64,000 bases of DNA, from positions 59,762 through 123,761 of the forward strand of contig JBBTRI010000010.1 of the NCBI GenBank assembly GCA_038065255.1, in the 5' to 3' direction. Under the pieces are notes generated by a model. That model had not been told where the DNA came from. It searched no databases and worked only from the letters and a program-made list of their open reading frames with translations. The stretch's first letter is position 1; every line of letters begins with the position of its first letter. The position numbers and the translations under genes were made by a program. Source of the stretch: Patescibacteria group bacterium. Lineage in GTDB: Bacteria; Patescibacteriota; Patescibacteriia; JACQRZ01. Below, piece by piece: positions 41,367-59,657 of the stretch.

Positions 41367-42530
41367 TTAATGAGTAACTAATTTTTTTGAGTATAGTAAT
41401 TGCTGCGTATGATCCCGCCAAACCCTTGGAATACCCTGCTGGCAATCGAGTCCTTTTACATGAAGGTGTTCATCCTGTCCGTCAGAATAAAAGAGTACAA
41501 TTTCCTTCTTTAGATCACGGGCAAGCCGAGCTACAGCTTTAAGAAGTTTGTCGGTGTCATTATGTTCTCCGTCTCGTATTCCATACCAGTGCACTTCTAA
41601 AATATTTGGATAAATAATACTTCCTGTTGCTAGGACATATCCCGCAGTTTTTCCGTCAGCATCCTGAAGGTGAATACTATGGGGTTGAAAAACACCTTCG
41701 CCTTTGTTCTGAGCTAAAAAAAGATCTAAGCACGTTTCAAACTCATCAAATCTCTCGAGTGAGTAATTCTCCTTTGCGCATGTTAGTATGTCCTGCTTAT
41801 TGTTTTCTTGAACCTCCTCAAGAGGAAGCTGCAATTCACTTCCACTATAATCTGATGTATCGAATGCATATGTTCTAAGATGCCTACCGGGTCCAAAATA
41901 ATCATCAATGTGAAATCCGGATGCATATCCGTGCCGCTCATAGCGCTGTCGCATTTTTTCGTTTGATGGTAAGTCATCAACTTCTGCCAATACATGAGTT
42001 GCTCCTCGTGAACGCGCCATCGCTTCTACCCAATCAATAAGAAAACCGGCAAGTTTTTTCCCTTGCATATCTTTCCGAACCGACGTCCAGCCAATGCGGG
42101 CATTGAGATAGTGTGAATCATCGAGCTTGTCACGAGTTGCAAAACCCCTCCCTCCCTGAATATCAATAGTGTAAATGCCAGTAACGGCAATCACTTCACC
42201 CTTCTCATTGAGAGCAAGATAGTATTCAGGATTAAGAAGTCCCGGAACGCCTAACTGTTCCTGCTCAAAAACAGCTTTAAATGTACTTTGCATTGCATTA
42301 AAATCCGATTCATATTCCCAGGAATTCCTAACTGCCTGCAAAACACCGTCAACATTCTTTCGTGTAAGTGCTATTACAGATAATGGAAAAGGTTTTTCGG
42401 TTTTAAATAATGTCTCTTCTGGACTCTTGTGGTATGCCTGAATTTCGCTTTCAGTTATTTCCCCCCTCGTAAACCGCTCATTGCGTGCTTCGGGAGATTC
42501 ATGGGTGTCATGTCCGCTTGATTGCGCCAT
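41367..42530 (-). CDS. Tandem-GNAT acetyltransferase-like protein
   Basis: Two GNAT-like halves (MQGKKLAGFLIDWVEAMARSRGATHVLAEV and GKTAGYVLATGSIIYPNILEVHWYGI). 387 aa. Confidence 0.4.
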   Translation of the reverse strand: MAQSSGHDTHESPEARNERFTRGEITESEIQAYHKSPEETLFKTEKPFPLSVIALTRKNVDGVLQAVRNSWEYESDFNAMQSTFKAVFEQEQLGVPGLLNPEYYLALNEKGEVIAVTGIYTIDIQGGRGFATRDKLDDSHYLNARIGWTSVRKDMQGKKLAGFLIDWVEAMARSRGATHVLAEVDDLPSNEKMRQRYERHGYASGFHIDDYFGPGRHLRTYAFDTSDYSGSELQLPLEEVQENNKQDILTCAKENYSLERFDEFETCLDLFLAQNKGEGVFQPHSIHLQDADGKTAGYVLATGSIIYPNILEVHWYGIRDGEHNDTDKLLKAVARLARDLKKEIVLFYSDGQDEHLHVKGLDCQQGIPRVWRDHTQQLLYSKKLVTH

Positions 42531-43101: not shown

Positions 43102-43608
43102 CTATGAGTCGCTATGCACTCTTAAATCCCAGAGATAGTATACAAAGATACTGGCCATCACAAATAAGATAGATAATGCTTTTAACACAAATCGCAATGT
43201 TGTCTCACCGCTCAAAAGATCGTTCACCAATGCAACCAAATCTCCAATGATAATAAGGCTTGCGGCAAACAATGTGAACCAGATAAGCCATTTACGGATG
43301 CCAAGACGCCACTTTTGCGGAGTTTTGGTATTAATACGAAATAGATATGCCATTGCAGCTAAATATACAGGGAAAACAATAATAATCGAGGCAAGGGCAA
43401 AGCGCAATGCTTGTGTGTTTCCGGAATACATCATGGTTGACTTTTCAAAAATTTCAGGCAATGAAATATTAATGATCTGGAAAACAATAGTTAGAAAACT
43501 TGCCGCACTCATGTAAAGCGTAACGATTGCCAAGAGATTTAGGAAAAAATCTTTTGGTGTTGCTCGCTGGATATTGTTTTCATTACTCATAGTTAGACTT
43601 TTTCCCAA
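43102..43608 (-). CDS. Hypothetical integral membrane protein (4 TM)
   Basis: 168 aa with four hydrophobic helices. Overlaps the DHH gene start. Confidence 0.45.
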   Translation of the reverse strand: MGKSLTMSNENNIQRATPKDFFLNLLAIVTLYMSAASFLTIVFQIINISLPEIFEKSTMMYSGNTQALRFALASIIIVFPVYLAAMAYLFRINTKTPQKWRLGIRKWLIWFTLFAASLIIIGDLVALVNDLLSGETTLRFVLKALSILFVMASIFVYYLWDLRVHSDS

Positions 43609-45503: not shown

Positions 45504-46142
45504 ATGAGTATTCGATCAGCGCGTACATCAAGACTTCCACTGACTGACGAACGTTTTTTTGAAATACGAGAGAAAGCCACAGAGCTCTTACAGACTTCTT
45601 ATGCGAGTAAACTAGAGGTCTTTCCAAAAGAGATTGATGAAATACCTCCATACATACGCAAGTTCGCATCTGAACTTAGTATACAAGAGGATGAATTTCT
45701 TGCATTCCTCATGCATGCAGGACTCCTCTACGCACTGGAACTTAGGAGGCATTATACAATCGTTGCAATGGATCATTTGGATATTTCTGACGTCCTTAAT
45801 CAAGTTTCTGCGTCATCAGACCATGGAAACATTCTTCTATTCAATTTGGATACAAGCAGCATCAAGGCACTTGTTGATAAGCACGCTTCAGGAGCTGGCA
45901 TTGATGCCTCCATCCTCGCATCTGCTCTCACGGGATTTATCTGCCTTGTCTCTGAACTTCTTATTGAGTTCCATAATAAAAGTGCGATTAATATTACGCT
46001 TGTTGAGCAAACCAAGCCGTCAATAGCACCTTACCTTGATCTGGTAAAGCGACTTCGGAAGTTTTCGGAAAGATTGGGACCATGGATTGATTCCGATGGA
46101 AATGTCTGCTTCAACGTTGGATCACTCATACTTATGATCTAG
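45504..46142 (+). CDS. Hypothetical cytoplasmic protein
   Basis: 212 aa. No motif. Confidence 0.4.
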   Translation: MSIRSARTSRLPLTDERFFEIREKATELLQTSYASKLEVFPKEIDEIPPYIRKFASELSIQEDEFLAFLMHAGLLYALELRRHYTIVAMDHLDISDVLNQVSASSDHGNILLFNLDTSSIKALVDKHASGAGIDASILASALTGFICLVSELLIEFHNKSAINITLVEQTKPSIAPYLDLVKRLRKFSERLGPWIDSDGNVCFNVGSLILMI

Positions 46143-46174
46143 CCCACCGACCCTCTATAAAGGGTCTTTTTTTA

Positions 46175-46966
46175 TTAGCTTTCATTTCGTGCGAATTGTC
46201 CGGTTTCTTGCGCACGCAAAAGAAGATATTTAAAAATCAAAAGAGAGCAAATGAAATAGAGGATATTAAGCATAAGTGCCGGCACTTGCCAATTCAGGGC
46301 AGGATTACCCATCAAAAGCGTTTCTCGTGCACCCTCAAAAACATACGTGATCGGAAAGAGAAATGCAAAACTATGGAACGGTTCGGGGATGATACTCATA
46401 GGATAGTACACCCCACAGAGAGGCTGGAAGATAAAAATAAGCGCCCATCCAAGCGCTTGGACACGAGTTCCAAAACGAAAAACACAACCCAATAGAACAA
46501 GCCCTACAGACCATGAGAAGAGAAGAAGATTAATAAATATCATCACCAGCGCCAAAGGACCCATACTAAACATATTGAATTTAAAAAGAGCTCCGGCGAG
46601 TGGAATAAGAACCAAAAATACACCACCTGAAGTAAGTATCCCTTGTGCCATCTGTGCAAGAAGAAACTCCGTAAGTGAAAGAGGTGATACAAACATATTC
46701 CCTAAGTTACGGGACCAGACATTCCAAAATGCTGATACCGTCATCGAATATTGGCTAATGCGCATAACCTCCCAAAGCATTGCTCCAAGAATTAGGTACT
46801 GTCCTGTCTGAGTCGCAATACTTCCAAGTGTTGCTTGAGATATGTACCCAAACACAACCACACCGATAAATGCAAAAAATGGAATATCCATAATGACCTC
46901 AAGGGATCGCCTGGTAATATGCCACTGCTGTATGAGTACGCCTCTAATTCTTTGGGGTGAAATCAT
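46175..46966 (-). CDS. ABC-2 type transporter permease
   Basis: 263 aa with 6 TM. Overlaps the start of the ATPase gene. ABC-2 topology. Confidence 0.7.
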   Translation of the reverse strand: MISPQRIRGVLIQQWHITRRSLEVIMDIPFFAFIGVVVFGYISQATLGSIATQTGQYLILGAMLWEVMRISQYSMTVSAFWNVWSRNLGNMFVSPLSLTEFLLAQMAQGILTSGGVFLVLIPLAGALFKFNMFSMGPLALVMIFINLLLFSWSVGLVLLGCVFRFGTRVQALGWALIFIFQPLCGVYYPMSIIPEPFHSFAFLFPITYVFEGARETLLMGNPALNWQVPALMLNILYFICSLLIFKYLLLRAQETGQFARNES

Positions 46967-47909
46967 AGGTGCCTCGTGCTATTTGCATAAATACATCATC
47001 GAGTGTAGGTTTTTCGATGGAAATATCTTCAACGGCAATCTGTGCTTTACTTAATTTTGCCAGAATAGCAGGAATTTCTTTTTGTTTAACTTCAGCGCAG
47101 ATGGTATGTGTGAAGGGAAAGGTGACCTGCTTTGAGTATGAGTGCATGAGTGTTTCGATTTTCTTTTTCTCTCCACCGAAGGTGATTTGAAGCCGTGCGT
47201 ATTCTATCTTTTGCGTTAAATTAAGCGGTGTATCATGGGCAGCTATAACACCGTGATCAAGAAAGATCACTTCATCGCAAATGCGCGTGACTTCGGCCAT
47301 GTCATGACTTGTATACAAGATAGAGATTTTCCGTTCGTCTCGCATTCGTTCAATAAGTGAAAGTAATTTATCGGCAATATCCGGGTCGAGTGAAGCAGTT
47401 GGCTCATCAAAGAGAAGAAGTTCAGGATCGTTAAGCAATGCTTTGACAATATTCACTCTTGTTTGTTGACCCTTAGAAAGATCCCAGTATTTCATCTTTA
47501 CGAGATTGGTTATTTCCAAAAGTTCTGTAAGTTCAGCTATTTTACTTCGGGCATTTTTTACACAATATAAATCAGCAAATACCAATAGATTTTCCATAAC
47601 AGATATGCGACCCTGAAGCGTATTGAACGAAGACGCAAAGTTGATGCGCGCCAAGCATGCCTGTTTTGCTTTGCTAAAATCCATGCCAAAATATTCAATG
47701 CGCCCTCCGTTTGACTGGGTAATACCAAGGAGAATCTGAATTGTCGTTGTCTTGCCTGCCCCGTTTGGTCCTAAGAGTCCCACAATACCTCCTTGCGGAA
47801 CGGCAAAAGTAATAGTATCAACGGCTTTATAGGTGCCGTAGATTTTCGTGAGATTGGTTACACTAAGAGCGCTTATACTTTTTGTCATAATAAAAAAATG
47901 ATACCACAA
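46944..47909 (-). CDS. ABC transporter ATP-binding protein
   Basis: Walker A GLLGPNGAGKTTT. Signature LSKGQQTRV. Walker B LLLFDEPT. Confidence 0.85.
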   Translation of the reverse strand: MWYHFFIMTKSISALSVTNLTKIYGTYKAVDTITFAVPQGGIVGLLGPNGAGKTTTIQILLGITQSNGGRIEYFGMDFSKAKQACLARINFASSFNTLQGRISVMENLLVFADLYCVKNARSKIAELTELLEITNLVKMKYWDLSKGQQTRVNIVKALLNDPELLLFDEPTASLDPDIADKLLSLIERMRDERKISILYTSHDMAEVTRICDEVIFLDHGVIAAHDTPLNLTQKIEYARLQITFGGEKKKIETLMHSYSKQVTFPFTHTICAEVKQKEIPAILAKLSKAQIAVEDISIEKPTLDDVFMQIARGTYDFTPKN

Positions 47910-47967
47910 ATGAAAACATACAAAAAGCTAGCATCACTAACGCGACTCTACTTGAGTATTCTATGAT

Positions 47968-48225
47968 CTATTTTTTACTTACGTAATTCCAAAGCAAAGC
48001 AAATAGATAACCGACAACGTATCCCTTTACGAGCGCAATGAGAACAAGGGCAATTGCATACATCAGATTAAATGATGCGATCTGATGATTGGGAACAATC
48101 ATGTGAAGCATGAAGATGAAATCAACAAGTCCCTGTGCCAACCCAAGTGCTACAAGTAGTGACCAAAAAACATGGAGCCCTCCAACAAGAATTCCCAGTG
48201 TAAGTCCTGTTTTTTGTGGATTCAT
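47968..48225 (-). CDS. Small hypothetical membrane protein (2-3 TM)
   Basis: 85 aa, hydrophobic. Confidence 0.35.
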   Translation of the reverse strand: MNPQKTGLTLGILVGGLHVFWSLLVALGLAQGLVDFIFMLHMIVPNHQIASFNLMYAIALVLIALVKGYVVGYLFALLWNYVSKK

Positions 48226-48239
48226 AAAAAAGGTATTGA

Positions 48240-48590
48240 TTATACAGCTTGCGGAAACGGCTCAAGCTTTGTTATGCGGTTTGCGTCTGCCTTTGTTAAG
48301 AGATTTCTCTCTACCATAATCTCGACAAGCGTAAATAATTTGCGGTCTTCGCCTCGCAGAAGCACAACAAGATCCCCTTTAAGTTCCATATTTTGCTTAG
48401 CGATATAATCAATAAGGTCCGAACGAAGCCTTCCAAGATCTTCCTTGGTGGCAAAGGCCTTAAGATCTTCCTTGGTTGCCATGTCCTTAATATCCTCTTT
48501 GGTTGCCATTCTCTGTGAGATATCATCAAAGCATGCCTTCACTATAAGAGCGAGTTCATCAATAGTCATTTGTTGTGGTTGTTGATTCAT
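48240..48590 (-). CDS. Small protein with three tandem 9-aa repeats (ATKED[IL]K..)
   Basis: MATKEDIKD / MATKEDLKA / FATKEDLGR, encoded by three 27-nt tandem DNA units at 48433-48513. Confidence 0.45.
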   Translation of the reverse strand: MNQQPQQMTIDELALIVKACFDDISQRMATKEDIKDMATKEDLKAFATKEDLGRLRSDLIDYIAKQNMELKGDLVVLLRGEDRKLFTLVEIMVERNLLTKADANRITKLEPFPQAV

Positions 48591-48754
48591 AGTTTAATCA
48601 ATTAAGATAACTAAATTTTAGCATGTATTTGCTATCAAACAAATACTGGAGTGCATTTTCCACTTTTCACCACTTATTTTGACAACTGAAGAAATGACAC
48701 TTTTCCTTATGGTTGTATTGTTTTTTATAGATTGAGTGGTATAGTACCCATACT

Positions 48755-49207
48755 ATGCCATTGAAAGCATCACCCTACAGAGCATTTGTGTGGTTTTTTA
48801 CACGGCCCAAACTTCAAGGTACGTCTTGTATTTTGCGATGTGGCAATGAAGTATTGCTTGTTGACTACAAATATGGCAGTGGATGGAATTTTCCAACAGG
48901 GCTCATTCAAATAGAAAACGAAAGTCCACAAGACGCTGCTCACCGTGAGCTCAGAACTGAATTTTCCATTCGGACAAAGATGCTACAATACATCGGATAC
49001 GTCTTTTGTAGATTCCAATGCCGCAGGGATCGTATTTTTTGTTTCGTTGTTGAGTTGAATAGTAAAGACGTGGATATCAACAATAAAGATATTCGAGGAA
49101 TACAATGGGTTTCTATTCCAGAACTCGAGAACATCACAATATCCCCTTTTTCAAAGGAAATTATTGCTCGCTGGTTCAAAAAGCAACGCCAAACTATTAC
49201 CACCTAG
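48755..49207 (+). CDS. NUDIX hydrolase
   Basis: GWNFPTGLIQIENESPQDAAHRELRTEFSI approximates the Nudix box (G..E x7 REx2xE). 150 aa. Confidence 0.55.
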   Translation: MPLKASPYRAFVWFFTRPKLQGTSCILRCGNEVLLVDYKYGSGWNFPTGLIQIENESPQDAAHRELRTEFSIRTKMLQYIGYVFCRFQCRRDRIFCFVVELNSKDVDINNKDIRGIQWVSIPELENITISPFSKEIIARWFKKQRQTITT

Positions 49208-51678
49208 TTCAGTGGAGTTGTTGTTGCACTACTTGAACCTGTTGACGTGGTTGTATTCTGCTGTGCTGGCTGGGTAGTCGAAGTTGAGCTTCCGGTGCCC
49301 GTACTTGTACTTTGCTGCGCAGGTTGAGTAGCTGATGTACTCGTTGTTGTTGCCGGTTTAAGCGTAAAGCGTTGCAAATAAATCGGAAGGCTCGTTACTT
49401 TTCTGGATACACCATATTTAGTTGAGTACTCAAGCGCCCAAACCAATCGCAATTGGTCATCTTCACCGGTAAGCTTTGCTTCCAATAAAACATCTGCATA
49501 AATATTAGCAACAACACTCGCGCCTGGCGCAATAGTATACGAGTTTACTCCAAAACCTATCTGACTGCCTGGAGCAGTAAATGGTGTAACATGGGTGATT
49601 CCAACATGCTTTCCATCAATAAAGTACTTGATATTATTAAATGCCTTACCAAGTCCTTCAGTTCCGTCACTGTCACTTATGGTCGGCTCTTCGATACTGA
49701 CACTTTCACTAAATCCATTTACGATGACGAATGAACCAATGAGCTGCTGTATTTCACCGCGGACAAGTGTAGGGGATCCAACAGCAGCATTCGTCTTTAC
49801 ACTCAAAAAGGCTGCGGGCAATTGGACAGGTGGTTGTGCGTATCCTGCTTTTTGCTCATACCCTGCTTTTTGTTCTGCCTGAGTAATCACCGGCAACTGA
49901 GGTGGTTGAACAACTTCAACGACGACTGATTTGCGCATTGATCGTTCATCATTTTTGCAATCAAAATAATAGGTTGTTGTTTTATCCGGAGCAAAAACAT
50001 CTGAACCGCTCAACTCCTTTGTGCCAGTCCAGCCGCCGGATGCCGTACACATGTTAGCATTCCGTACATCCCAAAATGCCGTTACTGTTTTGCCTAATGC
50101 AATCACTGATTTCTGAGGATAGAAATCGAGCCAAATACTCCCTGTTTTCTTTGCCTTAGCAATGGCAACAGAGACAGATGCCTCTTTGCCGCTTTCATTA
50201 TTTTTGCAGGTAAGCTTATAATCCGTTTCTTCTTGCGGACGTACATACTCAGAACCATCGACGGAACGGTCGCCGCTCCATCCGCCGGACGCACTACACT
50301 GTGTTGCGTTCTTAGTCTTCCATGTCAGGAGAATTGATTCACCCGGTGATTTAAAAGAATAGCGTGAAGGATAGAGCGTCAAACTTACCGGAGCATTATC
50401 TGGTTCAAGTACTTCAACAACAAAGGACTTACGCTTTGAAGTCTCATCATTCTTGCAGTCAAGGTAGTAGGTTGTCGTTTTGTCAGGTGAAAATGTTTCC
50501 GAGCCTTCTAAATCACGAGTTCCCGTCCAACCACCGGATGCCGTGCAGCTTCTTGCATTATGCACATTCCACGTTACGGTTGTCGATTTGCCAGCTTTGA
50601 TATTTGCCCGTGCCGGTTGCATGCTCATGGAAATATCTCCCTTCATTTTCTTTTTTGACAGATTTACCGATACCGAATTTTCAACTCCTGTTTCTGACGT
50701 GCATGTCAGTTTATAACTTGTATCCTCTGTTGGGCGCACATGTTCCGTGCCTTCAACGGGTCTATCTCCACTCCAGCCACCGGATGCAACACAGCTCTTG
50801 GCGCTCTTTGCTTTCCATGTCAGAACAATTGGATCGCCAGGTTTTGCAAAATAGTAGGTGGAGGGATACAGTGAAATACTCAACGGTAATGGTGGTGCTT
50901 CATACTGTTGATAATACGGTGCTTGCATGGTGCCATAGCCAGATTTCATTTCCGGAGGAGGCATATATGGCTGATATGGCACGGGATATGCTTGAATTGG
51001 AATAGGTAAGGGTTGCGATAAATCATACGGAAATGAATAACTGTACCCCGGTTTCATTTCGGTACTAGCTTGATCAACTATAACATTTGCGGAGAGATCT
51101 GCTGTAAATGTACGCTGATCATTCCAGCATCGAAGGAAATACGTGGTCGTAGTATCAGGCGCGATAACTTCACTACCGCTATTTCGCTTCATACCTTCCC
51201 ATGCATCTGGACCATACCCGCGGCACGCTACTGCATCTTTTGCGCGCCATTGTAGCGTAACAGTAGCACCATCAGTAATTTTTGCCTTGTTTGTTTTGAA
51301 TGTAACGCCGGGAACTTTCTTTTTCCCAGGTTTCTTTTTTATCACTTGGACTTTCTGGGTTTGTTCATCGGTACTGAAGCCCTCATCATCAAAGCATTCG
51401 AGGGAATATTCTGTTTTTTTCTTTTTTGGATATACCACCACTGACCCTGATGTCTTTTGCCTACCCGACCATGCACCCGATGCTACACAATAGGTGGCAT
51501 CAGATGCCTCCCATTCCAGTACAACACGCTCGCCTTTTACAATCGTCCGGGGAGTTGCGACAAATACCAAATCCAAATCTTCGTCTTCTTCCGCAAATGA
51601 TGGCGCAGGTGTGCCACTCAAAACTAAGGCAGTAATTGTTAAAAATATAACATGAAAACGCATTAAACGCCTATCCAT
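49204..51678 (-). CDS. Large secreted/cell-surface repeat protein: six tandem ~95-aa two-cysteine domains plus a C-terminal Ser/Thr-rich low-complexity tail
   Basis: Signal peptide MDRRLMRFHVIFLTITALVLSGTPAPSFA. Repeats share W(K/R)AK.A..C.ASGGW(S/T)G....GSE...P...T.Y.L.C. C-terminus TTTSTSATQPAQQSTSTGTGSSTSTTQPAQQNTTTSTGSSSATTTP. The underlying DNA repeats are diverged. Confidence 0.7.
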   Translation of the reverse strand: MDRRLMRFHVIFLTITALVLSGTPAPSFAEEDEDLDLVFVATPRTIVKGERVVLEWEASDATYCVASGAWSGRQKTSGSVVVYPKKKKTEYSLECFDDEGFSTDEQTQKVQVIKKKPGKKKVPGVTFKTNKAKITDGATVTLQWRAKDAVACRGYGPDAWEGMKRNSGSEVIAPDTTTTYFLRCWNDQRTFTADLSANVIVDQASTEMKPGYSYSFPYDLSQPLPIPIQAYPVPYQPYMPPPEMKSGYGTMQAPYYQQYEAPPLPLSISLYPSTYYFAKPGDPIVLTWKAKSAKSCVASGGWSGDRPVEGTEHVRPTEDTSYKLTCTSETGVENSVSVNLSKKKMKGDISMSMQPARANIKAGKSTTVTWNVHNARSCTASGGWTGTRDLEGSETFSPDKTTTYYLDCKNDETSKRKSFVVEVLEPDNAPVSLTLYPSRYSFKSPGESILLTWKTKNATQCSASGGWSGDRSVDGSEYVRPQEETDYKLTCKNNESGKEASVSVAIAKAKKTGSIWLDFYPQKSVIALGKTVTAFWDVRNANMCTASGGWTGTKELSGSDVFAPDKTTTYYFDCKNDERSMRKSVVVEVVQPPQLPVITQAEQKAGYEQKAGYAQPPVQLPAAFLSVKTNAAVGSPTLVRGEIQQLIGSFVIVNGFSESVSIEEPTISDSDGTEGLGKAFNNIKYFIDGKHVGITHVTPFTAPGSQIGFGVNSYTIAPGASVVANIYADVLLEAKLTGEDDQLRLVWALEYSTKYGVSRKVTSLPIYLQRFTLKPATTTSTSATQPAQQSTSTGTGSSTSTTQPAQQNTTTSTGSSSATTTPLN

Positions 51679-51736
51679 AGGATTAATGGATATGAATAAA
51701 TTATTGTCTATAGTATAGGTGTTAAAAAGAGCTCTG

Positions 51737-53665
51737 TCAAAGCCTATAAACAGTTATCGACGGACTTATCAATATTTTTGATCCTCCAAGTCCTTCTACT
51801 TCCCTTTCAATTCCCCTCTGTCGATACCAATATGAATGCACTACCAAATAGAGTGGGCGATCTTGAATGACCTTTTTAAGATTGTGAATGATTTCTTCGT
51901 TTACCTCGCCATACAGAAAATAGTTGCTATAGGGATACAGAGACTCAATGGGTGAAATTGCATAGGTATGCATTTTATCACTCAAAGCATTCTTAAATGT
52001 TTTCTCAAATCCCAGTACTCTCAATCCAACTGCTGCAAAGAGTTGATCGCTTGCCACTACATATTCTCCTCCTTTTTCGATATCCTCTATAAATCGAACT
52101 GCTTCAAAATCATCAGCAGATGCATTCCATCCAGCCCTTGGTTTAAATTCATTGACTTGGGGATACATAAGGTAGAGCGAGAGTGCCGCAGAGATTGATA
52201 GAATACTAATACTTAATACACGAACAATGCCATTATTCAAAATCTGCTTCAAAATCATCGGCAGGGGAAACGAAATAAGCAGTGGGAAAAAGATAGCGGG
52301 GATAATGCGATAGAGGCGCGCTGCAAACTCTCCCTGCTCATTTACTACAATTCCTGGCAGGGTAATATACATCGAGAGGCCAAATGCAGCTATCGCTAGT
52401 CCAATGGCAAGAGAACTGCTCGGAATGTGAAGGTGTGTTTTTTTTGAATATACAATACTGCATACTATACCGATTACGAAGAAAGTGGCTTTTATGAAAT
52501 ATTCATAGTAATTAATAATACTGCTACCAAGTGAGGCCATACCTACTGAGCGCGGAAATGCTAAGATCGATTTTATTTTTTCAAATGCCGAAGAAAGAGT
52601 TCTGGATTCAAAGAGAGTCATGCCATGCATGAAACGATAGATAGCAAATAGAGTTACAAGCGCAACTCCAATACATGCACCGACGCCAAAAAGTAATGCA
52701 ATTCTGTGCCTTTGGACGACTTTCCACGTATGGAGCGAGAGTGCGAGAGTAGAGATCACAAGCGGAACGCCAATAAGGGGGTGAATTGCCATCGCCGCCA
52801 ATGAAATGCACCAAAGAATAATTTTGCTAAACACATGCTGCTGCCAGATCGGGGCAAGAAATATCCACCAAAGCAATAAAATCACTGTGAGATTATGAGG
52901 AACGGTAAATGTAAGCTCTGTAAGTGGATAGAGTGTAAATAAAACTATTGCAATGTGTGCGCGCCGAACAGAACAACCATACCCGCGTACAAGACCAAAA
53001 AAAATAATAAACGGCAAGGTAGCTACTACAAGAATTGGTACAAGAAAACGGTCTATGATATCTATAGGAATTGCTGTAAGAAAACTCAATGCACTGACAA
53101 TGCCATATTGTCCGATATACAGGGGTTGTAGTGGAGTAATTACCCCATGAAGCTTAATATACTCTTCTGCAGTTTGATGAATGAGCGGATCATATCCAAA
53201 ACCATAGGGAAAGGCGATTAACGCAATGCCGTAGATGGTAAAAAAATGCACACTCATTGCTACCCACTGGATCCTGCTTACCACAGATGCTCTTAGAGCA
53301 GTTTGTACTAGACAAAAAAATGAAATAGCAACGCATACAAACATCCACCAGGGTACAAGCGACCATGGTGTTTGGAGTGGCGCATTGGTACGTGCATTCC
53401 ACAGTGCAAACAAAAAAATGCAATCAAAAAGTATGGCACTAGAAGGAAGTAGGTATGCCAATACATGTATCTTCTTGTCAGTAAGGGGCTGTTTTTCTGA
53501 TACAGGAAATGACCGTTGTGCTGCAAAGGCAATCAATATACTGCCAAGGAGTACTACAAAGGAAGATAGTAGAGTTATACCCACGGTAAGATAGGCGATC
53601 GAAGAAAGTATAACAAATACGCTGAAAGCAAAAATACCTATGAGCATTCTGCTATGTATGCCCAT
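51737..53665 (-). CDS. Polytopic membrane protein (~12-13 TM plus a C-terminal soluble domain), GT-C-fold glycosyltransferase-like
   Basis: 642 aa. Many TM helices. Acidic residue in the first extracytoplasmic loop (FPYGFGYDPL). ~150-aa C-terminal non-membrane domain. The architecture resembles the ArnT/PMT class. By inference only. Confidence 0.45.
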   Translation of the reverse strand: MGIHSRMLIGIFAFSVFVILSSIAYLTVGITLLSSFVVLLGSILIAFAAQRSFPVSEKQPLTDKKIHVLAYLLPSSAILFDCIFLFALWNARTNAPLQTPWSLVPWWMFVCVAISFFCLVQTALRASVVSRIQWVAMSVHFFTIYGIALIAFPYGFGYDPLIHQTAEEYIKLHGVITPLQPLYIGQYGIVSALSFLTAIPIDIIDRFLVPILVVATLPFIIFFGLVRGYGCSVRRAHIAIVLFTLYPLTELTFTVPHNLTVILLLWWIFLAPIWQQHVFSKIILWCISLAAMAIHPLIGVPLVISTLALSLHTWKVVQRHRIALLFGVGACIGVALVTLFAIYRFMHGMTLFESRTLSSAFEKIKSILAFPRSVGMASLGSSIINYYEYFIKATFFVIGIVCSIVYSKKTHLHIPSSSLAIGLAIAAFGLSMYITLPGIVVNEQGEFAARLYRIIPAIFFPLLISFPLPMILKQILNNGIVRVLSISILSISAALSLYLMYPQVNEFKPRAGWNASADDFEAVRFIEDIEKGGEYVVASDQLFAAVGLRVLGFEKTFKNALSDKMHTYAISPIESLYPYSNYFLYGEVNEEIIHNLKKVIQDRPLYLVVHSYWYRQRGIEREVEGLGGSKILISPSITVYRL

Positions 53666-53668
53666 GCA

Positions 53669-54466
53669 TCAATTCCTTTCCCGCACACACCATGTACCGA
53701 CCTGACGTCCCTTCATGCCCTCACAATCCTTTCGAGTACGATCGGAATTATAAAGCGGCGTAGAGCATGCATGCGCAAATATACCCTCGACATTATGACA
53801 GGAAAAAGGTTCTTGGCATGGCGTTGTACATTGTACATACCATGGTTCTTCTGGCGTCGTTTGTGGTGCCTGTGGAGAAAGCGATTCTTGCTTTTGTGCA
53901 GCTGGCGCTTGAACAGGTTCTTTTGTGCTCGATTGATCCTCGCTAAGAAGTTCTTTTATGAGCGTAATATTTTCTTTTAACTCCTTTGGTGCCATTGATT
54001 CCTTCTTGCATTTTGTATGAGATTTGTCAACGGAGCTCCCAAGCGGACAGACGCATTTCTTTCCATTCACTTTTGCTCCAAGTGGACAACGGTCATCTGT
54101 TGTATTTCCTATGTTCAGCACAAGCTCCGTGATATCACGTTTTGTGGAAATTGCTTCGCATATATTTTTATCACGATTTGGAACCTCTTTTTTGCATACC
54201 TTCTGACCTATAGAAGCGGCTTCTCGTACAGATTGAGAGGGGTGAGCGGCGCATTTTTCGGCGCATTTTTTCAGTTTAGTGTAATCTTTAATAAAGGGTT
54301 TATTATAACGGCAATTCAATACGCACTGTAATCGAATATGCCCCATAAGCGTCCCTTTATACGTACTAGCCGATCCGGACTTTGCTGCAATTACCGGCAT
54401 ACTTGCAGCGCACAGCAAACCAATAAGTGAGCCCACTAAGACAAAGAAAAATAAAAACCTTTTCAT
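53669..54466 (-). CDS. Cys-rich secreted protein (~17 Cys)
   Basis: Signal peptide MKRFLFFFVLVGSLIGLLCAASMPVIAA (start taken at the internal Met). CxxxC and CxC spacing throughout. A proline/glutamine-rich linker. Confidence 0.45.
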   Translation of the reverse strand: MKRFLFFFVLVGSLIGLLCAASMPVIAAKSGSASTYKGTLMGHIRLQCVLNCRYNKPFIKDYTKLKKCAEKCAAHPSQSVREAASIGQKVCKKEVPNRDKNICEAISTKRDITELVLNIGNTTDDRCPLGAKVNGKKCVCPLGSSVDKSHTKCKKESMAPKELKENITLIKELLSEDQSSTKEPVQAPAAQKQESLSPQAPQTTPEEPWYVQCTTPCQEPFSCHNVEGIFAHACSTPLYNSDRTRKDCEGMKGRQVGTWCVRERN

Positions 54467-54482
54467 ATTTCTATGTACTATC

Positions 54483-55022
54483 TTATTCTTCTGGTTTCCC
54501 ATCCTTTCTTTCGCTTCGGCGTTTTTCAGAAAGTTTCAATCCTATATAACCACTTCGATAGTGTTCGCGCTGAGCTTCGATTCTTAGGGCGAGTACATGA
54601 TAAAACATCGGCTTTTTCGTAATATCTGCCTTTGTCGCATCGTTCATCATTACAGCGACCTGTTCAAATCCATAGGTATTGATAAGCGACCGGTATTCCT
54701 GTTCCTGTCTTTTCTTTCGTGCAGGAGGCACTTGGTCGACGAGTGAATGGAGAAGCTTCATGACTGTGGCGTAGTGATCAATGTCTAGCCCGGCTTTTTT
54801 CAACATCGCCATTTCATATCCTCGGATTTCTTCGGGAGGTGTTTGAGTAATCATTTCTTGCCGCTCTGCCTCAAGCTTGTCCATAATCGCACGCCCTTTG
54901 AGCGAAATCCCTTTTCTCTCGTCAGTTCTAAATAGAGATTCATTTAACGCCGGATCGTCTTGATTTTGATTTGACTGATCTGATTGCCCCTTTCTACCCG
55001 GAAACCCTATTATTTTACCCAT
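54483..55022 (-). CDS. Hypothetical protein
   Basis: 179 aa, charged, no motif. First gene of the 55.0-49.2 kb co-directional cluster. Confidence 0.35.
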   Translation of the reverse strand: MGKIIGFPGRKGQSDQSNQNQDDPALNESLFRTDERKGISLKGRAIMDKLEAERQEMITQTPPEEIRGYEMAMLKKAGLDIDHYATVMKLLHSLVDQVPPARKKRQEQEYRSLINTYGFEQVAVMMNDATKADITKKPMFYHVLALRIEAQREHYRSGYIGLKLSEKRRSERKDGKPEE

Positions 55023-55059
55023 ATATGCGTATTGATTAAATAATTAATGCAATGCACCT

Positions 55060-56436
55060 TTACAAAAATAGTGATGCAATCGTCGCAACACCTGCAAGCG
55101 CCATAAGGATCGTAACAAACCATCCACAAAACTTTGTTATAGGGCCACTCACCCATTTACCCATGATTTTTCTGTTTGAGCTCATAGAAACAATGAGAAC
55201 AAGAACAAGAGGGGCAACCAGTCCATTGGCGACAGCAGAATAAATCAGAGCCTTCATTGGGTTGATGCCTATGAAATTCAAAAGGAAGCCGATTGCCATG
55301 GAGATGATCAGGATTCCATAAAAAGCATGAGCGTTATGAAGTTTATTGTAAAGCCCATTCTTCCATCGAAATGTCTCGGCGACTGCATAGGACGCAGACC
55401 CCGCCAATACCGGCACAGCCAAAAGACCGGTGCTCACGATACCAAGTGTGAAAAGAAGATATGATGCATCACCTGCAAATGGGCGCAGAGCTTCAGCAGC
55501 TTGCGCTGCAGTAGCAATATCATGTATGCCATTGGCATAGAGTGTTCCTGCAGACGCGACGATAATAAAGAACATGATGAGATTTGAAAGAAACATTCCA
55601 GACCACACATCAATACGCATCTTTTTGATATCTTCCACGCTCGCGCCCCGACGCTCCCTTATCGTTGTTTTTCCTTCCAACACTTGCTCCTCAACCTCTT
55701 GTGAAGTCTGCCAGAAAAAAAGATAGGGAGATATTGTTGTGCCTAGGATTGCACAAATGAGAATAATTTGATCTTGTGAAAAAGCAATCGATGGAGTCAG
55801 GGTATGAAACGTGATGGCTTGCCAATCGAGACCTTTAATCATGATTGTCGAAATGATATATGCAACAAGCGTCAGTGCGAGATACTTCAAATATTTGGCA
55901 TAACGCGCATAAGTAGAGAAGATTTGAAGAAAGAGACTCACCAACGCGAAAATAATAATGAGTGCTGCAAAATTCGCTCCGGGAAAAAGAAGCTTCATAG
56001 ATTCTGCCATAGCACCAAGGTCCGCCCCGAGATTAAATGTATTTGCAGCAAAAAGGAGGATAGTGCATATATAGAGTACGGTGCGCGGATAGTGTGTGCG
56101 GATATTTGCCGCAAGACCCTTGCCTGTTACAATCCCAATACGTGCGCACATTTCCTGAACTACTGCCATAAAAGGGAAGGTGAATCCTGCAAGCCAGAGC
56201 AGCTGTGGACCATACTGTGCTCCAGTCTGGGAATAGGTCGCAATACCCGCAGGATCATCGTCGGATGCGCCAGTCGTCAATCCTGGCCCAAGAGTGCGCC
56301 AAAAGCCCCGTGCTTCTTGCATAGGCTTTTTACTTGCAATATCATGAACTACCAACTCGGATAACTCAACAGTTTTTTCGAGTATAATTGCCGGCGCTTC
56401 AATAGTTTTTTTTAAAATCGATTTAGTTTTCGGCAT
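55060..56436 (-). CDS. mntH: NRAMP-family divalent metal (Mn2+/Fe2+) transporter
   Basis: GPGLTTGASDDDPAGIATYSQTGAQYG matches the Nramp DPGN-type first-TM motif. ~11 TM. 458 aa. Confidence 0.75.
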   Translation of the reverse strand: MPKTKSILKKTIEAPAIILEKTVELSELVVHDIASKKPMQEARGFWRTLGPGLTTGASDDDPAGIATYSQTGAQYGPQLLWLAGFTFPFMAVVQEMCARIGIVTGKGLAANIRTHYPRTVLYICTILLFAANTFNLGADLGAMAESMKLLFPGANFAALIIIFALVSLFLQIFSTYARYAKYLKYLALTLVAYIISTIMIKGLDWQAITFHTLTPSIAFSQDQIILICAILGTTISPYLFFWQTSQEVEEQVLEGKTTIRERRGASVEDIKKMRIDVWSGMFLSNLIMFFIIVASAGTLYANGIHDIATAAQAAEALRPFAGDASYLLFTLGIVSTGLLAVPVLAGSASYAVAETFRWKNGLYNKLHNAHAFYGILIISMAIGFLLNFIGINPMKALIYSAVANGLVAPLVLVLIVSMSSNRKIMGKWVSGPITKFCGWFVTILMALAGVATIASLFL

Positions 56437-56486
56437 GGTTCAAATAAATAATTGCTCATGCTTAGTATATCATGAAAAGAATGTAT

Positions 56487-58124
56487 TTACTGTTGCAACT
56501 CCTTTTTCTCATTCAGTGCTTCAAGCGCTACTGTATGAAGTTTGGCTGAAACTTTTTGTTCGCCAAACCGCAAAAGCTCACGAATCTCTGCTGTATTTTC
56601 ACTCTTTGTCTTATCTCCAAGCGCTACAGCAATAATTTGTCCTGATTTTCCTTGGATACTCGTCATCAAGCAATACCCTGCTTCGTGAAGGTATCCTGTT
56701 TTGGATCCTGTCACTGCAAGGTTTGAAGTCACAAGCTGATTGGAATTTTTTAGTACATGTTTTTGCTTGGTATTGATTGTTGAAAATGCATAGCGTTTCA
56801 TAGTGCTTGCTTTTTGAATAATCGGATCACGAAGCGCTACAAGCGCCAGCAATGCATAGTCGTGTGCAGAGCTTACATTATTTGGCGAAAGGCCGGTAGG
56901 TTCATTGAAATGCACAGAAAGAAAACCGCGATCATGAGCAAAGCTGTTCATTTTTTGTATAAACTCGTCGCGGGGCAAGCCACTTACCCGCACCAGAGAT
57001 TCAACAGCATTATTTGCAGATCCGACAAGTGCTGAATACAGGAGATCTTCAACGGTCAACGTATCCCCTTCTTTGAGTTTGAGTGTTGCTGCTTCGTAGG
57101 GGTAGTCAACGAGTTTGTAGGTTACTATTTCATCATCTACATGATATGGTACAACGTCATTGAGGTTTGGATTTGAATCAAGAAATACACGAATGGCAAT
57201 GATCTTTGAAAGACTTGCTATCGGAAGCGGAGTTTCTGCATTTTTTTCATATAATACATTTCCAGTTCCCTCATCCAACACTACGGCAGCTTTTGATGTG
57301 ATGTGCGGATAGGTGACTGCGTCTTCATGTGAAATGCCAAGCGCTTTCCCATCCTGTAGTGCAATGAAAAGCGGTTCAATTCTCACCGGTATAATCCCAG
57401 CTCCGAGAGGAGCGATTTTTTGAAACGCGCTTTTTTCCAAATCCACAACGCGTTCGGGATGGAGCAATCTGTCAGGGCCATAATCATTAATAGTCACATC
57501 AACACGCTTGTCATTTAGGGTATTGTATACGCGTATTTTTGATCCTTTGGGAAAATCGGGCGAAGCCGCAAAGAGTCCTTTTTTGTGAGCATACCAACTC
57601 GCCTTACCTTCAGCGAGCACATCAGGATAGGCAAAGAGAGCGATACGGGCATAGGGCAAATGAATCAGCGATCTTGCAAGTGCGGTATTTGTTAATACTG
57701 TTGTGGGTAAAGCGCGCCATGTTGATTTCGTCTTATCGTAAAAAAAGACTTGCTTAAGACGCGATGTTTCTTCTGTAGCTTTCAATTCAATGATAAATGG
57801 CTTAGTTGCGTCGTAAGCACTCTTATTCAGAAATTCAAAATCATAAATCGGACTGATCCGCTGAAGACCCAGGGGCATTTCCATCTCCGGAATAACAGTA
57901 GCTCGAATAGTTGTTTCACTGGAAAGGATTCCAGGAATAAGAGAAAGTTTCAATCCTTCTTCAAAGGCAGTTACTGTATACCCTTTTGCAATCGTAGCCG
58001 CATCAAGACGGATAGAAAATTCTGCATAATCAGAGGATACTTCGGCATAGCCCAGAGAAACTCCAAAGAAAAGGAAAGCGCAAATACTCAAACTGGCAGA
58101 TAAATACTTCATAATGTAAATCAT
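56487..58124 (-). CDS. Fusion protein: RlpA-like double-psi beta-barrel domain plus D-alanyl-D-alanine carboxypeptidase (S11, PBP5-type)
   Basis: Signal peptide. GKASWYAHKKGLFAASPDFPKGSKIRVYNTLNDKRVDVTINDYGP is an RlpA/DPBB signature. C-terminal AAVVLDEGTGNVLYEKNAETPLPIASLSKI (SxxK), SGN and KTG motifs. Confidence 0.7.
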   Translation of the reverse strand: MIYIMKYLSASLSICAFLFFGVSLGYAEVSSDYAEFSIRLDAATIAKGYTVTAFEEGLKLSLIPGILSSETTIRATVIPEMEMPLGLQRISPIYDFEFLNKSAYDATKPFIIELKATEETSRLKQVFFYDKTKSTWRALPTTVLTNTALARSLIHLPYARIALFAYPDVLAEGKASWYAHKKGLFAASPDFPKGSKIRVYNTLNDKRVDVTINDYGPDRLLHPERVVDLEKSAFQKIAPLGAGIIPVRIEPLFIALQDGKALGISHEDAVTYPHITSKAAVVLDEGTGNVLYEKNAETPLPIASLSKIIAIRVFLDSNPNLNDVVPYHVDDEIVTYKLVDYPYEAATLKLKEGDTLTVEDLLYSALVGSANNAVESLVRVSGLPRDEFIQKMNSFAHDRGFLSVHFNEPTGLSPNNVSSAHDYALLALVALRDPIIQKASTMKRYAFSTINTKQKHVLKNSNQLVTSNLAVTGSKTGYLHEAGYCLMTSIQGKSGQIIAVALGDKTKSENTAEIRELLRFGEQKVSAKLHTVALEALNEKKELQQ

Positions 58125-58291
58125 TGCACTATGATATCATACGACGATCTTTGCGCAAAATAAAAAGTCACCAGACATATCTAGTGACGCGAGATTCTCT
58201 CTATTAGAGTAAGTCCCGCGGACGTTTAGCTTTTACAAACACTTCTTTTGTTTTTCCTGTTTCGAATTTTGGTATGTCTTCCATAATTGTG

Positions 58292-58744
58292 TTAAAACGT
58301 AAATTCTTTGCTTCCGTCCTCGCCATAGAGCTCATCATCCCAATATTTCATATAGCTTGGTTCAATTATCCAAATTGACGAACCGCGCTTATTAGTGTGG
58401 ATCCAATCAAGTGTGATCTTTTCTGCAAATTCAGGAAAGTTTGCGTTATGTAGACGTACACCGACGTCTATTTCTTCCTCATTCTGAGCAAGTCGACACT
58501 GTCCCAAACCCTGAATGGCTTTCCTGTTTTTGTGATTTGATCTGTCAAACCATACGATAGAGAAGGCGATATGGGAATTTTGCTGTATGTGACTACTGTG
58601 TCTCGTATTCTTTCCTGAGACAAAATATAGTTTAAAATTTGCATCAACACCGTAATACACGTTTGCGACCCATGGCTCACCATTTTCACAGGTAGCAATA
58701 ATCACCAATTTTTGTGATTGTAGGAATTCAAGTAGCTTTTTCAT
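58292..58744 (-). CDS. Pyridoxamine 5'-phosphate oxidase-family (FMN-binding split-barrel) protein
   Basis: MKKLLEFLQSQKLVIIATCENGEPWVANVYYGVD is the typical PNPOx-like N-terminus. 150 aa. Confidence 0.65.
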   Translation of the reverse strand: MKKLLEFLQSQKLVIIATCENGEPWVANVYYGVDANFKLYFVSGKNTRHSSHIQQNSHIAFSIVWFDRSNHKNRKAIQGLGQCRLAQNEEEIDVGVRLHNANFPEFAEKITLDWIHTNKRGSSIWIIEPSYMKYWDDELYGEDGSKEFTF

Positions 58745-58847
58745 GTTGATCGTATTACTGATGACTTAATTTTACTTTATTTGCGAGGTAAAGCAAATAA
58801 CTGAAGAAACGTCTACTCTGTATGAAAATACAAAGGTATCCGAATAC

Positions 58848-58876
58848 CAAAAATCTCCTCAGAGAGGAGATTTTTG
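58848..58876 (-). terminator. Bidirectional rho-independent terminator hairpin downstream of tRNA-Gln
   Basis: AAAAATCTCCTC-AGA-GAGGAGATTTTT is a perfect palindrome with an A-tract and a T-tract. It lies 18 nt past the tRNA-Gln 3' end. Confidence 0.5.
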
Positions 58877-58893
58877 CACAAAATACATTTTTC

Positions 58894-58964
58894 CTGCCGG
58901 GGAAGGAATCGAACCCTCATTCACAGGTTCAAAGCCTGCTGTCCTGCCATTAGACGACCCGGCA
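58894..58964 (-). tRNA. tRNA-Gln (anticodon UUG)
   Basis: Hand-folded: acceptor TGCCGGG/CCCGGCA. D-arm GTCT-AATGGCA-GGAC. Anticodon arm GCAGG-CTTTGAA-CCTGT (U33, UUG, A37). T-arm GAGGG-TTCGATT-CCTTC. Discriminator G. No encoded CCA. 71 nt. Confidence 0.85.
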
Positions 58965-59657
58965 ATAATAATTACCAATTGCTCGTATCCAACCCTCAAT
59001 CCTTCTATAGAGATCTGTGCTCTTAGTCACTCTCATGCAAATAAGTCCATAATAACTCTTTCCTATATTATGTCTAGTAGTTTTGATTTTATTTGTTTTA
59101 AAGTATATGTGTGTTAATTTTGAGAGTGGAACCTTCAGTATTCTTGACCAATATCTTGTCACTTTTTTTAGGGAGTAATAGCTTGATTTGTGAATATAAA
59201 TCTCGTAGTTCAATCGATCTTCATTAATCATAAAAACTTCTTTAAGCCAATACTGAAACAGTCTTAACATATGAGGATCTGAATTTGAGAATTTAATTCC
59301 GCACGTTGGACGATATTCTTTTGCCTTAGATCCTTCAGCCCAGTAAAGCATAATTCCCATTAACCATAAATCTTTTTTCGATAGATCTGTTATATCACTC
59401 GCAGCTTCATCAAATATAGCCTGTGTACGTACTATCCTTTCATTTTTTCTTTTTATTCCACCTCTTCGTCCTGCTTCAAGTTTCTTTTGAGTAAGTCTTT
59501 GTTTCTGTGGTTTAGATAAGTGCACTTCTTTAAGCCATAGCGATAATGTAGATTTTGCAACAGGAACGATTTTAACAATATCCCGCAAGGACATTCCTTT
59601 CTTTCTTAAGCGTAGTGCTTGATTTCTTTCTTCGATCTTTAAAATCATAAAAACCAC
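58950..59657 (-). CDS. HTH-domain protein with a LAGLIDADG-like segment; possible homing-endonuclease/transposase-derived ORF
   Basis: N-terminal HTH (NQALRLRKKGMSLRDIVKIVPVAKSTLSLWLKEV) resembles IS630/resolvase-type HTH. LWLMGIMLYWAEGSK loosely resembles a LAGLIDADG block. The region is AT-rich. The stop overlaps the tRNA-Gln 5' end. Confidence 0.4.
   Translation of the reverse strand: MVFMILKIEERNQALRLRKKGMSLRDIVKIVPVAKSTLSLWLKEVHLSKPQKQRLTQKKLEAGRRGGIKRKNERIVRTQAIFDEAASDITDLSKKDLWLMGIMLYWAEGSKAKEYRPTCGIKFSNSDPHMLRLFQYWLKEVFMINEDRLNYEIYIHKSSYYSLKKVTRYWSRILKVPLSKLTHIYFKTNKIKTTRHNIGKSYYGLICMRVTKSTDLYRRIEGWIRAIGNYYCRVV

Follow-up and report, generated by a model that had tools for sequence, protein, structure and literature searches.

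Genetic organization of the locus

The window, a stretch of 64,000 nucleotides from a Patescibacteria group bacterium (assembly GCA_038065255.1, contig JBBTRI010000010.1), contains on its minus strand, which carries all the features described below, an ORF that runs from ATG to stop at positions 49204..51678 (stop codon included). According to the ORF list and its translation, this gene encodes a modular, presumably secreted protein of 824 aa. As originally predicted, no other non-housekeeping ORF of the window is as large, the longer ORF of 1067 aa being that of DNA polymerase III alpha. The annotation publicly available for this contig places the start 5 codons further in, for a product of 819 aa, and an identical gene, reached through its neighbour, is present on contig CAYIQZ010000001.1 of GCA_964365725.1. 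Exact-sequence look-up retrieved no record of either form, and genome contigs searched with this single repeat protein yielded no confirmed relative. Upstream lies a gene for a 642-aa polytopic membrane protein with a predicted GT-C glycosyltransferase fold (51737..53665), which is the syntenic partner of the repeat gene. A promoter-like site (TTGACA-17-TATACT, 51712..51740) that matches the consensus at 11 of 12 positions lies within and at the border of the 58-nt gap that precedes the ATG, sites of this type being no more numerous in the region than expected by chance.

From its N- to its C-terminus, the protein would comprise a signal peptide, two Ig-like modules, a Pro/Tyr-rich hinge, four further Ig-like modules, a beta-rich C-terminal domain, and a Ser/Thr-rich tail. 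The predicted signal peptide (aa 1-29, MDRRLMRFHVIFLTITALVLSGTPAPSFA; 51592..51678) is the only segment with a Kyte-Doolittle value >1.6; this sole hydrophobic stretch is N-terminal, preceded by Arg residues and followed by S-F-A, and as far as can be read from sequence it agrees with the secretion initially proposed. The Ser/Thr-rich tail (aa 776-824; 49207..49353) was recognized by its composition, with 18 Thr and 11 Ser, and all orthologues have similar Ser/Thr- or Pro/Thr-rich tails. Neither an LPXTG motif, a lipobox Cys nor a C-terminal transmembrane segment was found in the protein, which ends in ...SSSATTTPLN and displays no hydrophobic window beyond aa 1-29. Any attachment to the cell surface is thus putative, and the protein could be released.

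Two linkers were identified by composition and motif content. The first (aa 203-263; 50890..51072) holds 14 Pro, 10 Tyr, and two K-x-G-Y motifs (aa 209 and 245), with K209, G211, and Y212 invariant in an alignment of three orthologues. The second (aa 591-617; 49828..49908) contains a tandem EQKAGY-EQKAGY that coincides with an 18-nt direct repeat at 49834-49869. The related motif [DEN]-x-K-[SPA]-G-Y is conserved in all orthologues, following unit 2 as well as the last unit. The Cys-free C-terminal domain (aa 618-775; 49354..49827) is unclassified and aligns with the C-terminal domains of the P0001, P0007, and L007 proteins. No Pfam match was obtained with this domain or with three of its relatives, a word-index homology search returned nothing at E<=0.01, and a PDB profile search retrieved solely an unrelated periplasmic binding protein (E 0.003). 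Comparison with the profile of the repeat units by hhalign (probability 2%) indicated no relation between the two.

Six two-cysteine units and their predicted fold

The units were delimited by alignments and a unit HMM, and AlphaFold2 was also applied to the third and fourth. Unit 1 (U1; aa 37-113; 51340..51570; Cys64/Cys95) is the positional orthologue of U1 in P0001 (49%) and P0007 (61%), and U2 (aa 122-202; 51073..51315; Cys152/Cys184) carries the variant motif CRGYGPDAWEG. Beyond the first linker are U3 (aa 264-340; 50659..50889; Cys296/Cys326) and U4 (aa 346-424; 50407..50643; Cys378/Cys408), followed by U5 (aa 429-506; 50161..50394; Cys461/Cys491) and U6 (aa 512-590; 49909..50145; Cys544/Cys574), which are lineage-specific paralogues of U3 and U4, respectively, with no equivalent in the orthologues.

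The six diverged tandem domains recognized by eye in the original prediction are real. Local alignments of unit pairs scored 81-261, as compared with a shuffle maximum of 59 (200 shuffles per pair; z 14-48), for pairwise protein identities of 31-64%, and the unit HMM gave six matches in the protein with E-values from 3e-31 to 2e-37. Each unit has exactly two Cys, and all 12 Cys of the protein fall inside the units in two aligned columns; the columns invariant across the six units are G, W, A, C, G, W, G, G, P, Y, and C. The period is ca. 83 aa (start-to-start distances of 249, 249, and 246 nt) with cores of 77-81 aa, which is shorter than the ca. 95 aa first estimated.

The AlphaFold2 model of U3-U4 (pLDDT 97.1) displays seven strands per unit and no helix, with strands at positions 4-9, 21-28, 32-37, 41-43, 46-51, 57-64, and 70-79 and the same pattern recurring in the second unit. 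Foldseek searches of the PDB with this model returned 29 matches at E<=1e-3, mostly tandem chains of Ig/Fn3/PKD type that included SorCS2, CbhA Fn3, RbmA, SiiE, GhpA, S-layer proteins, and intimin. None of these matches is strong in absolute terms (best E 3e-5, TM 0.3-0.45, 8-14% identity), the low TM-scores being partly explained by a query that held two domains, and together they establish the general fold class alone. When the unit profile was searched against PDB sequences, just weak titin matches that crossed domain boundaries were obtained. With its helix-free set of seven strands and its similarity to solved Ig/Fn3/PKD domains, the modelled module is a generic Ig/Fn3/PKD-like beta-sandwich.

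DSSP assignments of the model (Cys pairs 33/63 and 115/145) show that in each of the two units the first Cys is the second residue of strand 3, and its partner the last residue but one of strand 6. Were strands C and F to pair in the manner of Fn3/PKD folds, this register would be that of cross-strand neighbours. The placement, in a protein with 12 Cys in two columns and a predicted signal peptide, fits a cross-strand disulfide that probably stiffens the module outside the cell. Of the disulfide-stabilised beta-sandwich proposed at the outset, the sandwich in each unit and the conserved Cys pair were thus recovered, the disulfide itself being deduced from their positions.

Origin and stability of the repeat array

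Four units are found in the orthologues P0001, P0007, L006, L012, and L013, and two in the more distant L007. Within the window protein, U3 and U5 (64% protein identity) and U4 and U6 (60%) are mutually closer than they are to the orthologous units of relatives (45-53%): U5 shares 45-47% with orthologous U3s, and U6 shares 49-51% with orthologous U4s. Because the orthologues have four units, and the distant relative two, U5-U6 can be regarded as a lineage-specific duplicate of U3-U4, and the six-unit array would have arisen from a four-unit ancestor through a single tandem duplication that copied U3-U4. The proposed scenario of tandem amplification followed by divergence is therefore upheld by these data.

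At the DNA level, the U3U4 and U5U6 blocks share 63.8% identity (shuffles 55.5 +/- 2.3%), their third codon positions are 34% identical, which is near random, and the same codon is used at 34 of the 96 identical residues. Since synonymous sites are saturated, the duplication of U3-U4 must be ancient, and the array is consequently expected to be genetically stable at present and to be no recombination or phase-variation device. Two pairs of DNA segments had been singled out as homologous at 65-75% identity; their computed values, 62.0% and 66.2%, fall below that estimate and represent a homology at or barely above noise, as shuffled controls (mean 55%) reach maxima of 65-66%.

These figures bear directly on the suggestion that the internal repeats might serve today as a substrate for homologous recombination, varying copy number or antigenic type. 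That related lineages carry 2, 4, or 6 units speaks in its favour and implies that units were gained or lost over evolutionary time. However, RecA-dependent exchange requires a perfectly identical stretch of roughly 20-30 bp; the longest exact repeat found anywhere in this gene, a 12-nt, A/T-rich, Lys-coding run, does not lie at homologous positions. Tandem Repeats Finder detected no array in the gene, the best DNA repeat family is 28 nt long with 75-79% identity, and nothing in the gene approaches the tens of exactly repeated bp and >90% identity that characterize recombination or contingency repeat loci. Together with the low identity of even the most similar blocks and of their third positions, and with orthologous units that hold their positional identity across lineages, against ongoing homogenisation or shuffling, these observations make such a present-day role highly improbable.

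The upstream membrane protein and possible functions

The 642-aa upstream neighbour has no Pfam, NCBIfam, or PDB sequence match, and its GT-C membrane fold is predicted from structural similarity, with a Foldseek E of only about 1e-3 and 7-13% identity to the GT-C enzymes AftA, the AglB/STT3/PglB oligosaccharyltransferases, PMT, and ArnT. Its family has 14 detectable members only, which share the invariant motif GFGYDPxxHQ; the invariant D159 of this motif, a candidate for the catalytic acidic residue that GT-C enzymes carry in an extracytoplasmic loop, follows the fifth predicted helix, on a membrane side that can only be presumed. A WWDYG motif, as expected of oligosaccharyltransferases, is not evident in the protein. 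Of the 12 family loci that were read, 7, from three clades, have the GT-C gene directly before the repeat gene: the window, L001 (where the contig ends inside the upstream gene, whose match covers the C-terminal part only), L012, L013, L002/L003 (a single gene present on two assemblies), and L006. The gap between the two genes is 48-76 nt wherever neither is truncated. In an eighth locus, L007, the two genes belong to one cluster on the same strand. Between the window and L006 this pair alone is conserved, the upstream 277-aa Cys-rich and 179-aa genes not being homologous to those at the same positions in L006. Genes for DsbA and VKOR, associated with extracytoplasmic disulfide formation, often occur in the same neighbourhood in relatives.

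Overall, the locus likely encodes a Sec-exported protein of Ig-like modules belonging to a widespread family, with six units derived from four by an old duplication and a stable array. It may be pictured as a "beads-on-a-string" protein, extracellular or in the cell envelope of a Patescibacteria (CPR) bacterium, whose modules would most likely form either an adhesive surface or a rigid spacer by which the C-terminal domain is kept at a distance from the cell. A narrower version, in which the modules are inert spacers only and the C-terminal domain is the functional part, as a carbohydrate- or host-binding module, draws on the many homologues in which the same modules are fused to enzymes or binding domains, and on the retention of this type of C-terminal domain, in one to three copies, in every relative. 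It appears unlikely to us, as no family or solved relative could be detected for the C-terminal domain and a binding role is pure conjecture. Nor was any match to a ligand-binding or adhesin family, or any wall or membrane anchor motif, found for the repeat protein, and the role of dominant surface antigen or adhesin first proposed for it would be conjectural as well. Highly expressed Ig-like/PKD proteins in Patescibacteria have been described as candidate host-interaction factors (PMC10936435), which is given here as context only.

Compatible with the preferred reading of an exported spacer or adhesive protein, and extending it, is the possibility that the repeat protein is a dedicated substrate of the upstream GT-C protein. 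A lipid-linked donor would supply the sugar outside the membrane, for attachment to the Ser/Thr tail or at K-x-G-Y, and the repeat protein would function as a glycoprotein component of the envelope. The recurrent adjacency of the two genes, the L007 cluster, the Ser/Thr- or Pro/Thr-rich tails of every orthologue, and the conserved [DEN]-x-K-[SPA]-G-Y motifs all argue for this idea, as does the location of a distant family member (L010) inside a glycosylation gene cluster. Yet adjacency is lost in four more distant members (L008-L011), and the strong promoter-like site between the two genes means that their co-transcription is not required. Moreover, the neighbour matches no Pfam GT family, its Foldseek E-values are only about 1e-3, it has no assigned catalytic residues, and GT-C enzymes also work on lipids and polysaccharides, not proteins. 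On balance, we regard this substrate role as possible but rather doubtful. More speculative still, and improbable in our estimation, is the proposal that the two proteins form a dedicated, undescribed protein-glycosylation pair in Patescibacteria, in which GT-C enzymes of a new family would take sugar from a lipid carrier and attach it to the Ser/Thr tail or to K-x-G-Y, possibly as a Tyr-linked glycan. A literature search for a CPR oligosaccharyltransferase brought up nothing specific. Patescibacteria are regarded as living attached to host cells, and to our knowledge almost nothing is known of their envelope proteins or of any protein glycosylation in these bacteria; the conserved association between an exported protein with a Ser/Thr tail and an unannotated GT-C enzyme offers a concrete, testable entry point.

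A widespread module without a curated model

Tandem Ig-like repeat proteins are commonplace on bacterial surfaces, and the window protein is an ordinary representative of this exported type that matters little in itself. Its two-Cys module is nevertheless part of a very large family, spread over many phyla, that is fused to varied enzymes and binding domains and has no curated model. Profile searches with the unit retrieved 30,823 cluster representatives at E<=1e-3 (16,604 at E<=1e-10), with a typical copy number of 3-12 per protein. In other proteins, the domains fused to the module include apiosidase-like or collagen-binding, PQQ beta-propeller, peptidoglycan-binding, He_PIG, and PKD domains. 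Among 816 family units from 121 proteins, 804 hold exactly two Cys, with W23 and C31 conserved at 100% and W37 and C61 at 99%. N-glycosylation of the units, as hinted by the family consensus W-S-S-T-N-A-T-S-C, was considered and rejected here, the N-x-T sequon being kept by U5 only.

Pfam and NCBIfam searches with the whole repeat protein gave nothing above cut-off, the best Pfam entry being DUF6970 (20.4 bits for a cut-off of 27). In homologues, DUF5979 (PF19407) and K319L-like PKD (PF22352) accumulate weak summed scores over two-Cys modules, as illustrated by DUF5979 in P0010 (52.9 bits, no stretch being significant on its own). Neither matches the window protein at E<=1, and the two-Cys module is therefore without a dedicated curated model. 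Several homologues are named trimeric autotransporter adhesins by JGI, which looks like an automatic mis-assignment; no Pfam domain for a YadA-type C-terminal beta-barrel anchor or coiled-coil stalk was found in the window protein, and the model is all-beta and Ig-like. A literature search for a description of the module found nothing specific. Given that the module counts >30,000 cluster representatives in CPR and Proteobacteria and belongs to no curated family, a Pfam-style model built from the consensus would annotate thousands of 'hypothetical' proteins.

Among known systems, the best structural matches are SiiE, intimin D0-D1, RbmA, MpIBP region II, GhpA, and S-layer proteins, which are likewise exported tandem arrays of seven-strand sandwiches; in tandem Ig/Fn3/PKD-like surface proteins generally, copy number also varies between relatives. 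In contrast to SiiE/intimin/RbmA-type proteins, with which it shares 8-14% identity, the window protein has no Pfam Big, fn3, or PKD domain at cut-off. It also differs from tandem Ig-like surface proteins in being devoid of a beta-barrel, LPXTG motif, or T1SS signal, and in carrying one conserved Cys pair per module in place of Ca2+ sites or isopeptide bonds.

Architecture of the six-unit repeat protein

The repeat gene (49204..51678, minus strand) is an intact ORF with a product of 824 aa, located in a part of the window (45737-59647) that is identical to contig CAYIQZ010000001.1 of assembly GCA_964365725.1, whose annotation places the start five codons downstream (819 aa). The sole hydrophobic segment of this protein, preceded by Arg residues and followed by S-F-A, indicates a putative Sec-type signal peptide at aa 1-29, in support of the predicted secretion, and no LPXTG motif, lipobox or C-terminal transmembrane segment was found. 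The mature region comprises U1 (aa 37-113), U2 (aa 122-202), a Pro/Tyr-rich linker (aa 203-263), U3 (aa 264-340), U4 (aa 346-424), U5 (aa 429-506) and U6 (aa 512-590). These are followed by a short linker (aa 591-617) containing a tandem EQKAGY duplication, a Cys-free domain (aa 618-775) and a Ser/Thr-rich tail (aa 776-824; S or T at 29 of 49 residues). Pfam, homology and PDB profile searches, as well as hhalign against the unit profile, detected no family for aa 618-775. The low-complexity linkers carry K-x-G-Y motifs at aa 209, 245, 604 and 610 (ca. 51040-51054, 50932-50946 and 49837-49869), usually with an acidic residue or Asn before them, which could represent a modification or recognition site.

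All 12 Cys of the protein fall within the units, two in each and in two aligned columns, and 11 columns are invariant across the six units (G, W, A, C, G, W, G, G, P, Y, C). Protein identity between units ranges from 31 to 64%, and since all 15 unit pairs align far above shuffled controls (scores 81-261 against a shuffle maximum of 59; z 14-48), the two-Cys motif described in the original prediction is real. Its period had been put at ca. 95 aa and proved to be ca. 83 aa, with a start-to-start spacing of 249/249/246 nt. Likewise, the DNA identity of 65-75% estimated by eye was too high, the two segment pairs concerned reaching 62.0% and 66.2%, when shuffled global alignments averaged 55% with a maximum of 65-66%. 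As Tandem Repeats Finder also detected no array in the gene, the repeat is clear at the protein level and marginal at the DNA level.

An old duplication within the array

True orthologues, namely P0001, P0007 and genes of three related loci (L006, L012 and L013), have four units arranged as signal peptide, U1, U2, P/Y linker, U3, U4, C-terminal domain(s) and an S/T- or P/T-rich tail, so that the whole architecture, unit number apart, is common to them and the window protein. A more distant relative in locus L007 combines two units with three domains of the Cys-free C-terminal type. A three-way orthologue alignment shows U5-U6 of the window protein (aa 425-590) as a clean insertion, and the unit identity matrix reveals positional orthology for U1-U4. 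Within the window protein, U5 is nearest to U3 (64%, against 45-47% for orthologous U3s) and U6 to U4 (60%, against 49-51% for orthologous U4s). The U3-U4 block was therefore duplicated once, in tandem, in the window lineage.

This duplication is old. Identity between U3-U4 and U5-U6 at codon positions 1, 2 and 3 is 70%, 76% and 34%, respectively, and the same codon is kept at 34 of 96 conserved residues. RecA-dependent recombination needs ca. 20-30 bp of perfect identity, whereas the longest exact repeat anywhere in the gene is 12 nt; the array is thus not a present-day recombination substrate. Of the original interpretation, tandem amplification followed by divergence is borne out, along with secretion, the sandwich and the Cys pair, but the recombination substrate is not.

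The GT-C neighbour and its genomic context

The window is ordinary chromosome and encodes DnaE, GyrB, ThrRS, a LysRS/AsnRS-type synthetase, GatB, CTP synthase, RF-1, PBP2, FtsW/RodA, FtsEX and three tRNAs. A convergent NUDIX hydrolase gene (48755-49207, plus strand) overlaps the 3' end of the repeat gene by 4 nt (49204-49207), leaving no room for an intrinsic terminator. Several window ORFs had no Pfam match: a 116-aa ORF (48240-48590, minus strand) with three consecutive 9-aa ATKED(I/L) repeats (MATKEDIKD, MATKEDLKA, FATKEDLGR) and, at the thresholds used, ORFs of 488 aa (702-2168, plus strand), 391 aa (40270-41445, minus strand) and 639 aa (11698-13617, plus strand), the latter preceded by a putative glycosyl hydrolase of the GHL15 family (9629-11689). 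A 188-aa protein (63241-63807, minus strand) with a C-terminal glutaredoxin domain and a ca. 100-aa N-terminal extension overlaps an opposite-strand tRNA gene call (63579-63651), so its start or reality may need checking.

Upstream of the repeat gene, after a 58-nt gap, a 642-aa polytopic membrane protein is encoded (51737-53665, minus strand). With no Pfam match and only 14 detectable relatives, it represents a new, unannotated family with a predicted GT-C fold. The GT-C gene lies directly upstream of a repeat-protein orthologue in L001 (where it is truncated by the contig end and only its C-terminal part matches), L002/L003, L006, L012 and L013, the adjacency being present, window included, at 7 of 12 loci read for this family, across three clades (32-41% identity). 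In L007, both genes belong to one same-strand cluster, with DsbA, VKOR and FMN reductase between them. More distant GT-C family members lack the repeat gene; their neighbours are DsbA/VKOR in L011 and glycosyltransferase clusters in L009 and L010.

This conserved adjacency, the S/T tails of the repeat proteins, and a [DEN]-x-K-[SPA]-G-Y motif that directly follows both U2 and the last unit in every orthologue (P0001, P0007, L006, L012, L013) mark the repeat protein as a candidate substrate of its GT-C neighbour, a tentative hypothesis in its broad version; that the two form a specific novel system is still more doubtful. A near-consensus sigma-70-type promoter-like site (TTGACA-17-TATACT, 11/12; 51712-51740, minus strand) overlaps the GT-C stop codon, with its end 34 nt upstream of the repeat gene ATG, so co-transcription is not required. 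Real potential for novelty lies only in this pairing with an undescribed GT-C family.

In relatives, genes for VKOR, a DsbA-type thioredoxin and FMN reductase often precede the GT-C-like gene (L006 2215-2625; L007 2335-4989; L011 2192-4987), and such neighbourhoods would fit a dedicated role in the maturation of exported proteins with Cys; the window ORFs that were scanned included neither a VKOR nor a DsbA. A DUF5671-like gene, directly upstream of the GT-C-like gene in L002, L003 and L006, is ca. 8 kb away in the window (43102-43608, minus strand). Here, the upstream position is occupied by a 277-aa protein (53669-54502, minus strand) with an N-terminal hydrophobic segment, ca. 17 Cys and no Pfam match, which is not conserved at this place in L006.

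An abundant module with an Ig-like fold

No Pfam-A or NCBIfam model reached its cut-off with the repeat protein, which had 233 matches among 5.8 billion proteins. Scanning the best 120 with an HMM built on U1-U6 revealed 3-12 module copies each and 816 units in total, 804 of which have exactly two Cys. Their consensus (...TLxWSSTNATSCxASGxWSGxKxxSGS...TYxLTCxGxGG...) is conserved at W23 and C31 (100%), W37 and C61 (99%) and G39 (98%). A search of 1.84 billion cluster representatives with a tandem unit-pair profile matched 30,823 proteins at E<=1e-3, a number that fell to 16,604 at E<=1e-10 and to 4,505 at E<=1e-30; some of these proteins have dozens of copies. By source name, carriers include Saccharibacteria, Gammaproteobacteria and other Pseudomonadota, and partner domains include apiosidase-like, collagen-binding, peptidoglycan-binding, He_PIG, PKD and fn3 domains and PQQ propellers. 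The Pfam families DUF5979, K319L-like_PKD and DUF4249 cover the modules of homologues with weak summed scores only; the module is therefore common, yet without a curated model.

Structure prediction, suggested alongside the original prediction, was performed on U3-U4 with AlphaFold2 from a 47-row alignment of unit pairs, and gave an all-beta model (mean pLDDT 97.1) with seven strands per unit and no helix. Each modelled unit has its first Cys as second residue of strand 3 and its other Cys as penultimate residue of strand 6 (33/63 and 115/145 in model numbering). If the C and F strands pair antiparallel, as they do in Fn3/PKD folds, the two Cys would face each other, and each unit probably contains a cross-strand disulfide. 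The proposed disulfide-stabilised sandwich thus holds for the sandwich and the conserved Cys pair, the bond itself being probable from strand positions. A PDB sequence-profile search with the unit profile returned weak titin matches only. The fold class is established as an Ig-like sandwich, nothing more specific, and the repeat protein is an exported tandem Ig-like repeat protein of a well-known kind, whose module is abundant but has no name. Foldseek searches of the PDB with the U3-U4 model recovered tandem Ig/Fn3/PKD-type proteins (best E 3e-5, identity 8-14%), including the PKD domains of SorCS2 and the Fn3 modules of CbhA, as well as RbmA, SiiE, intimin D0-D1, GhpA and S-layer proteins.
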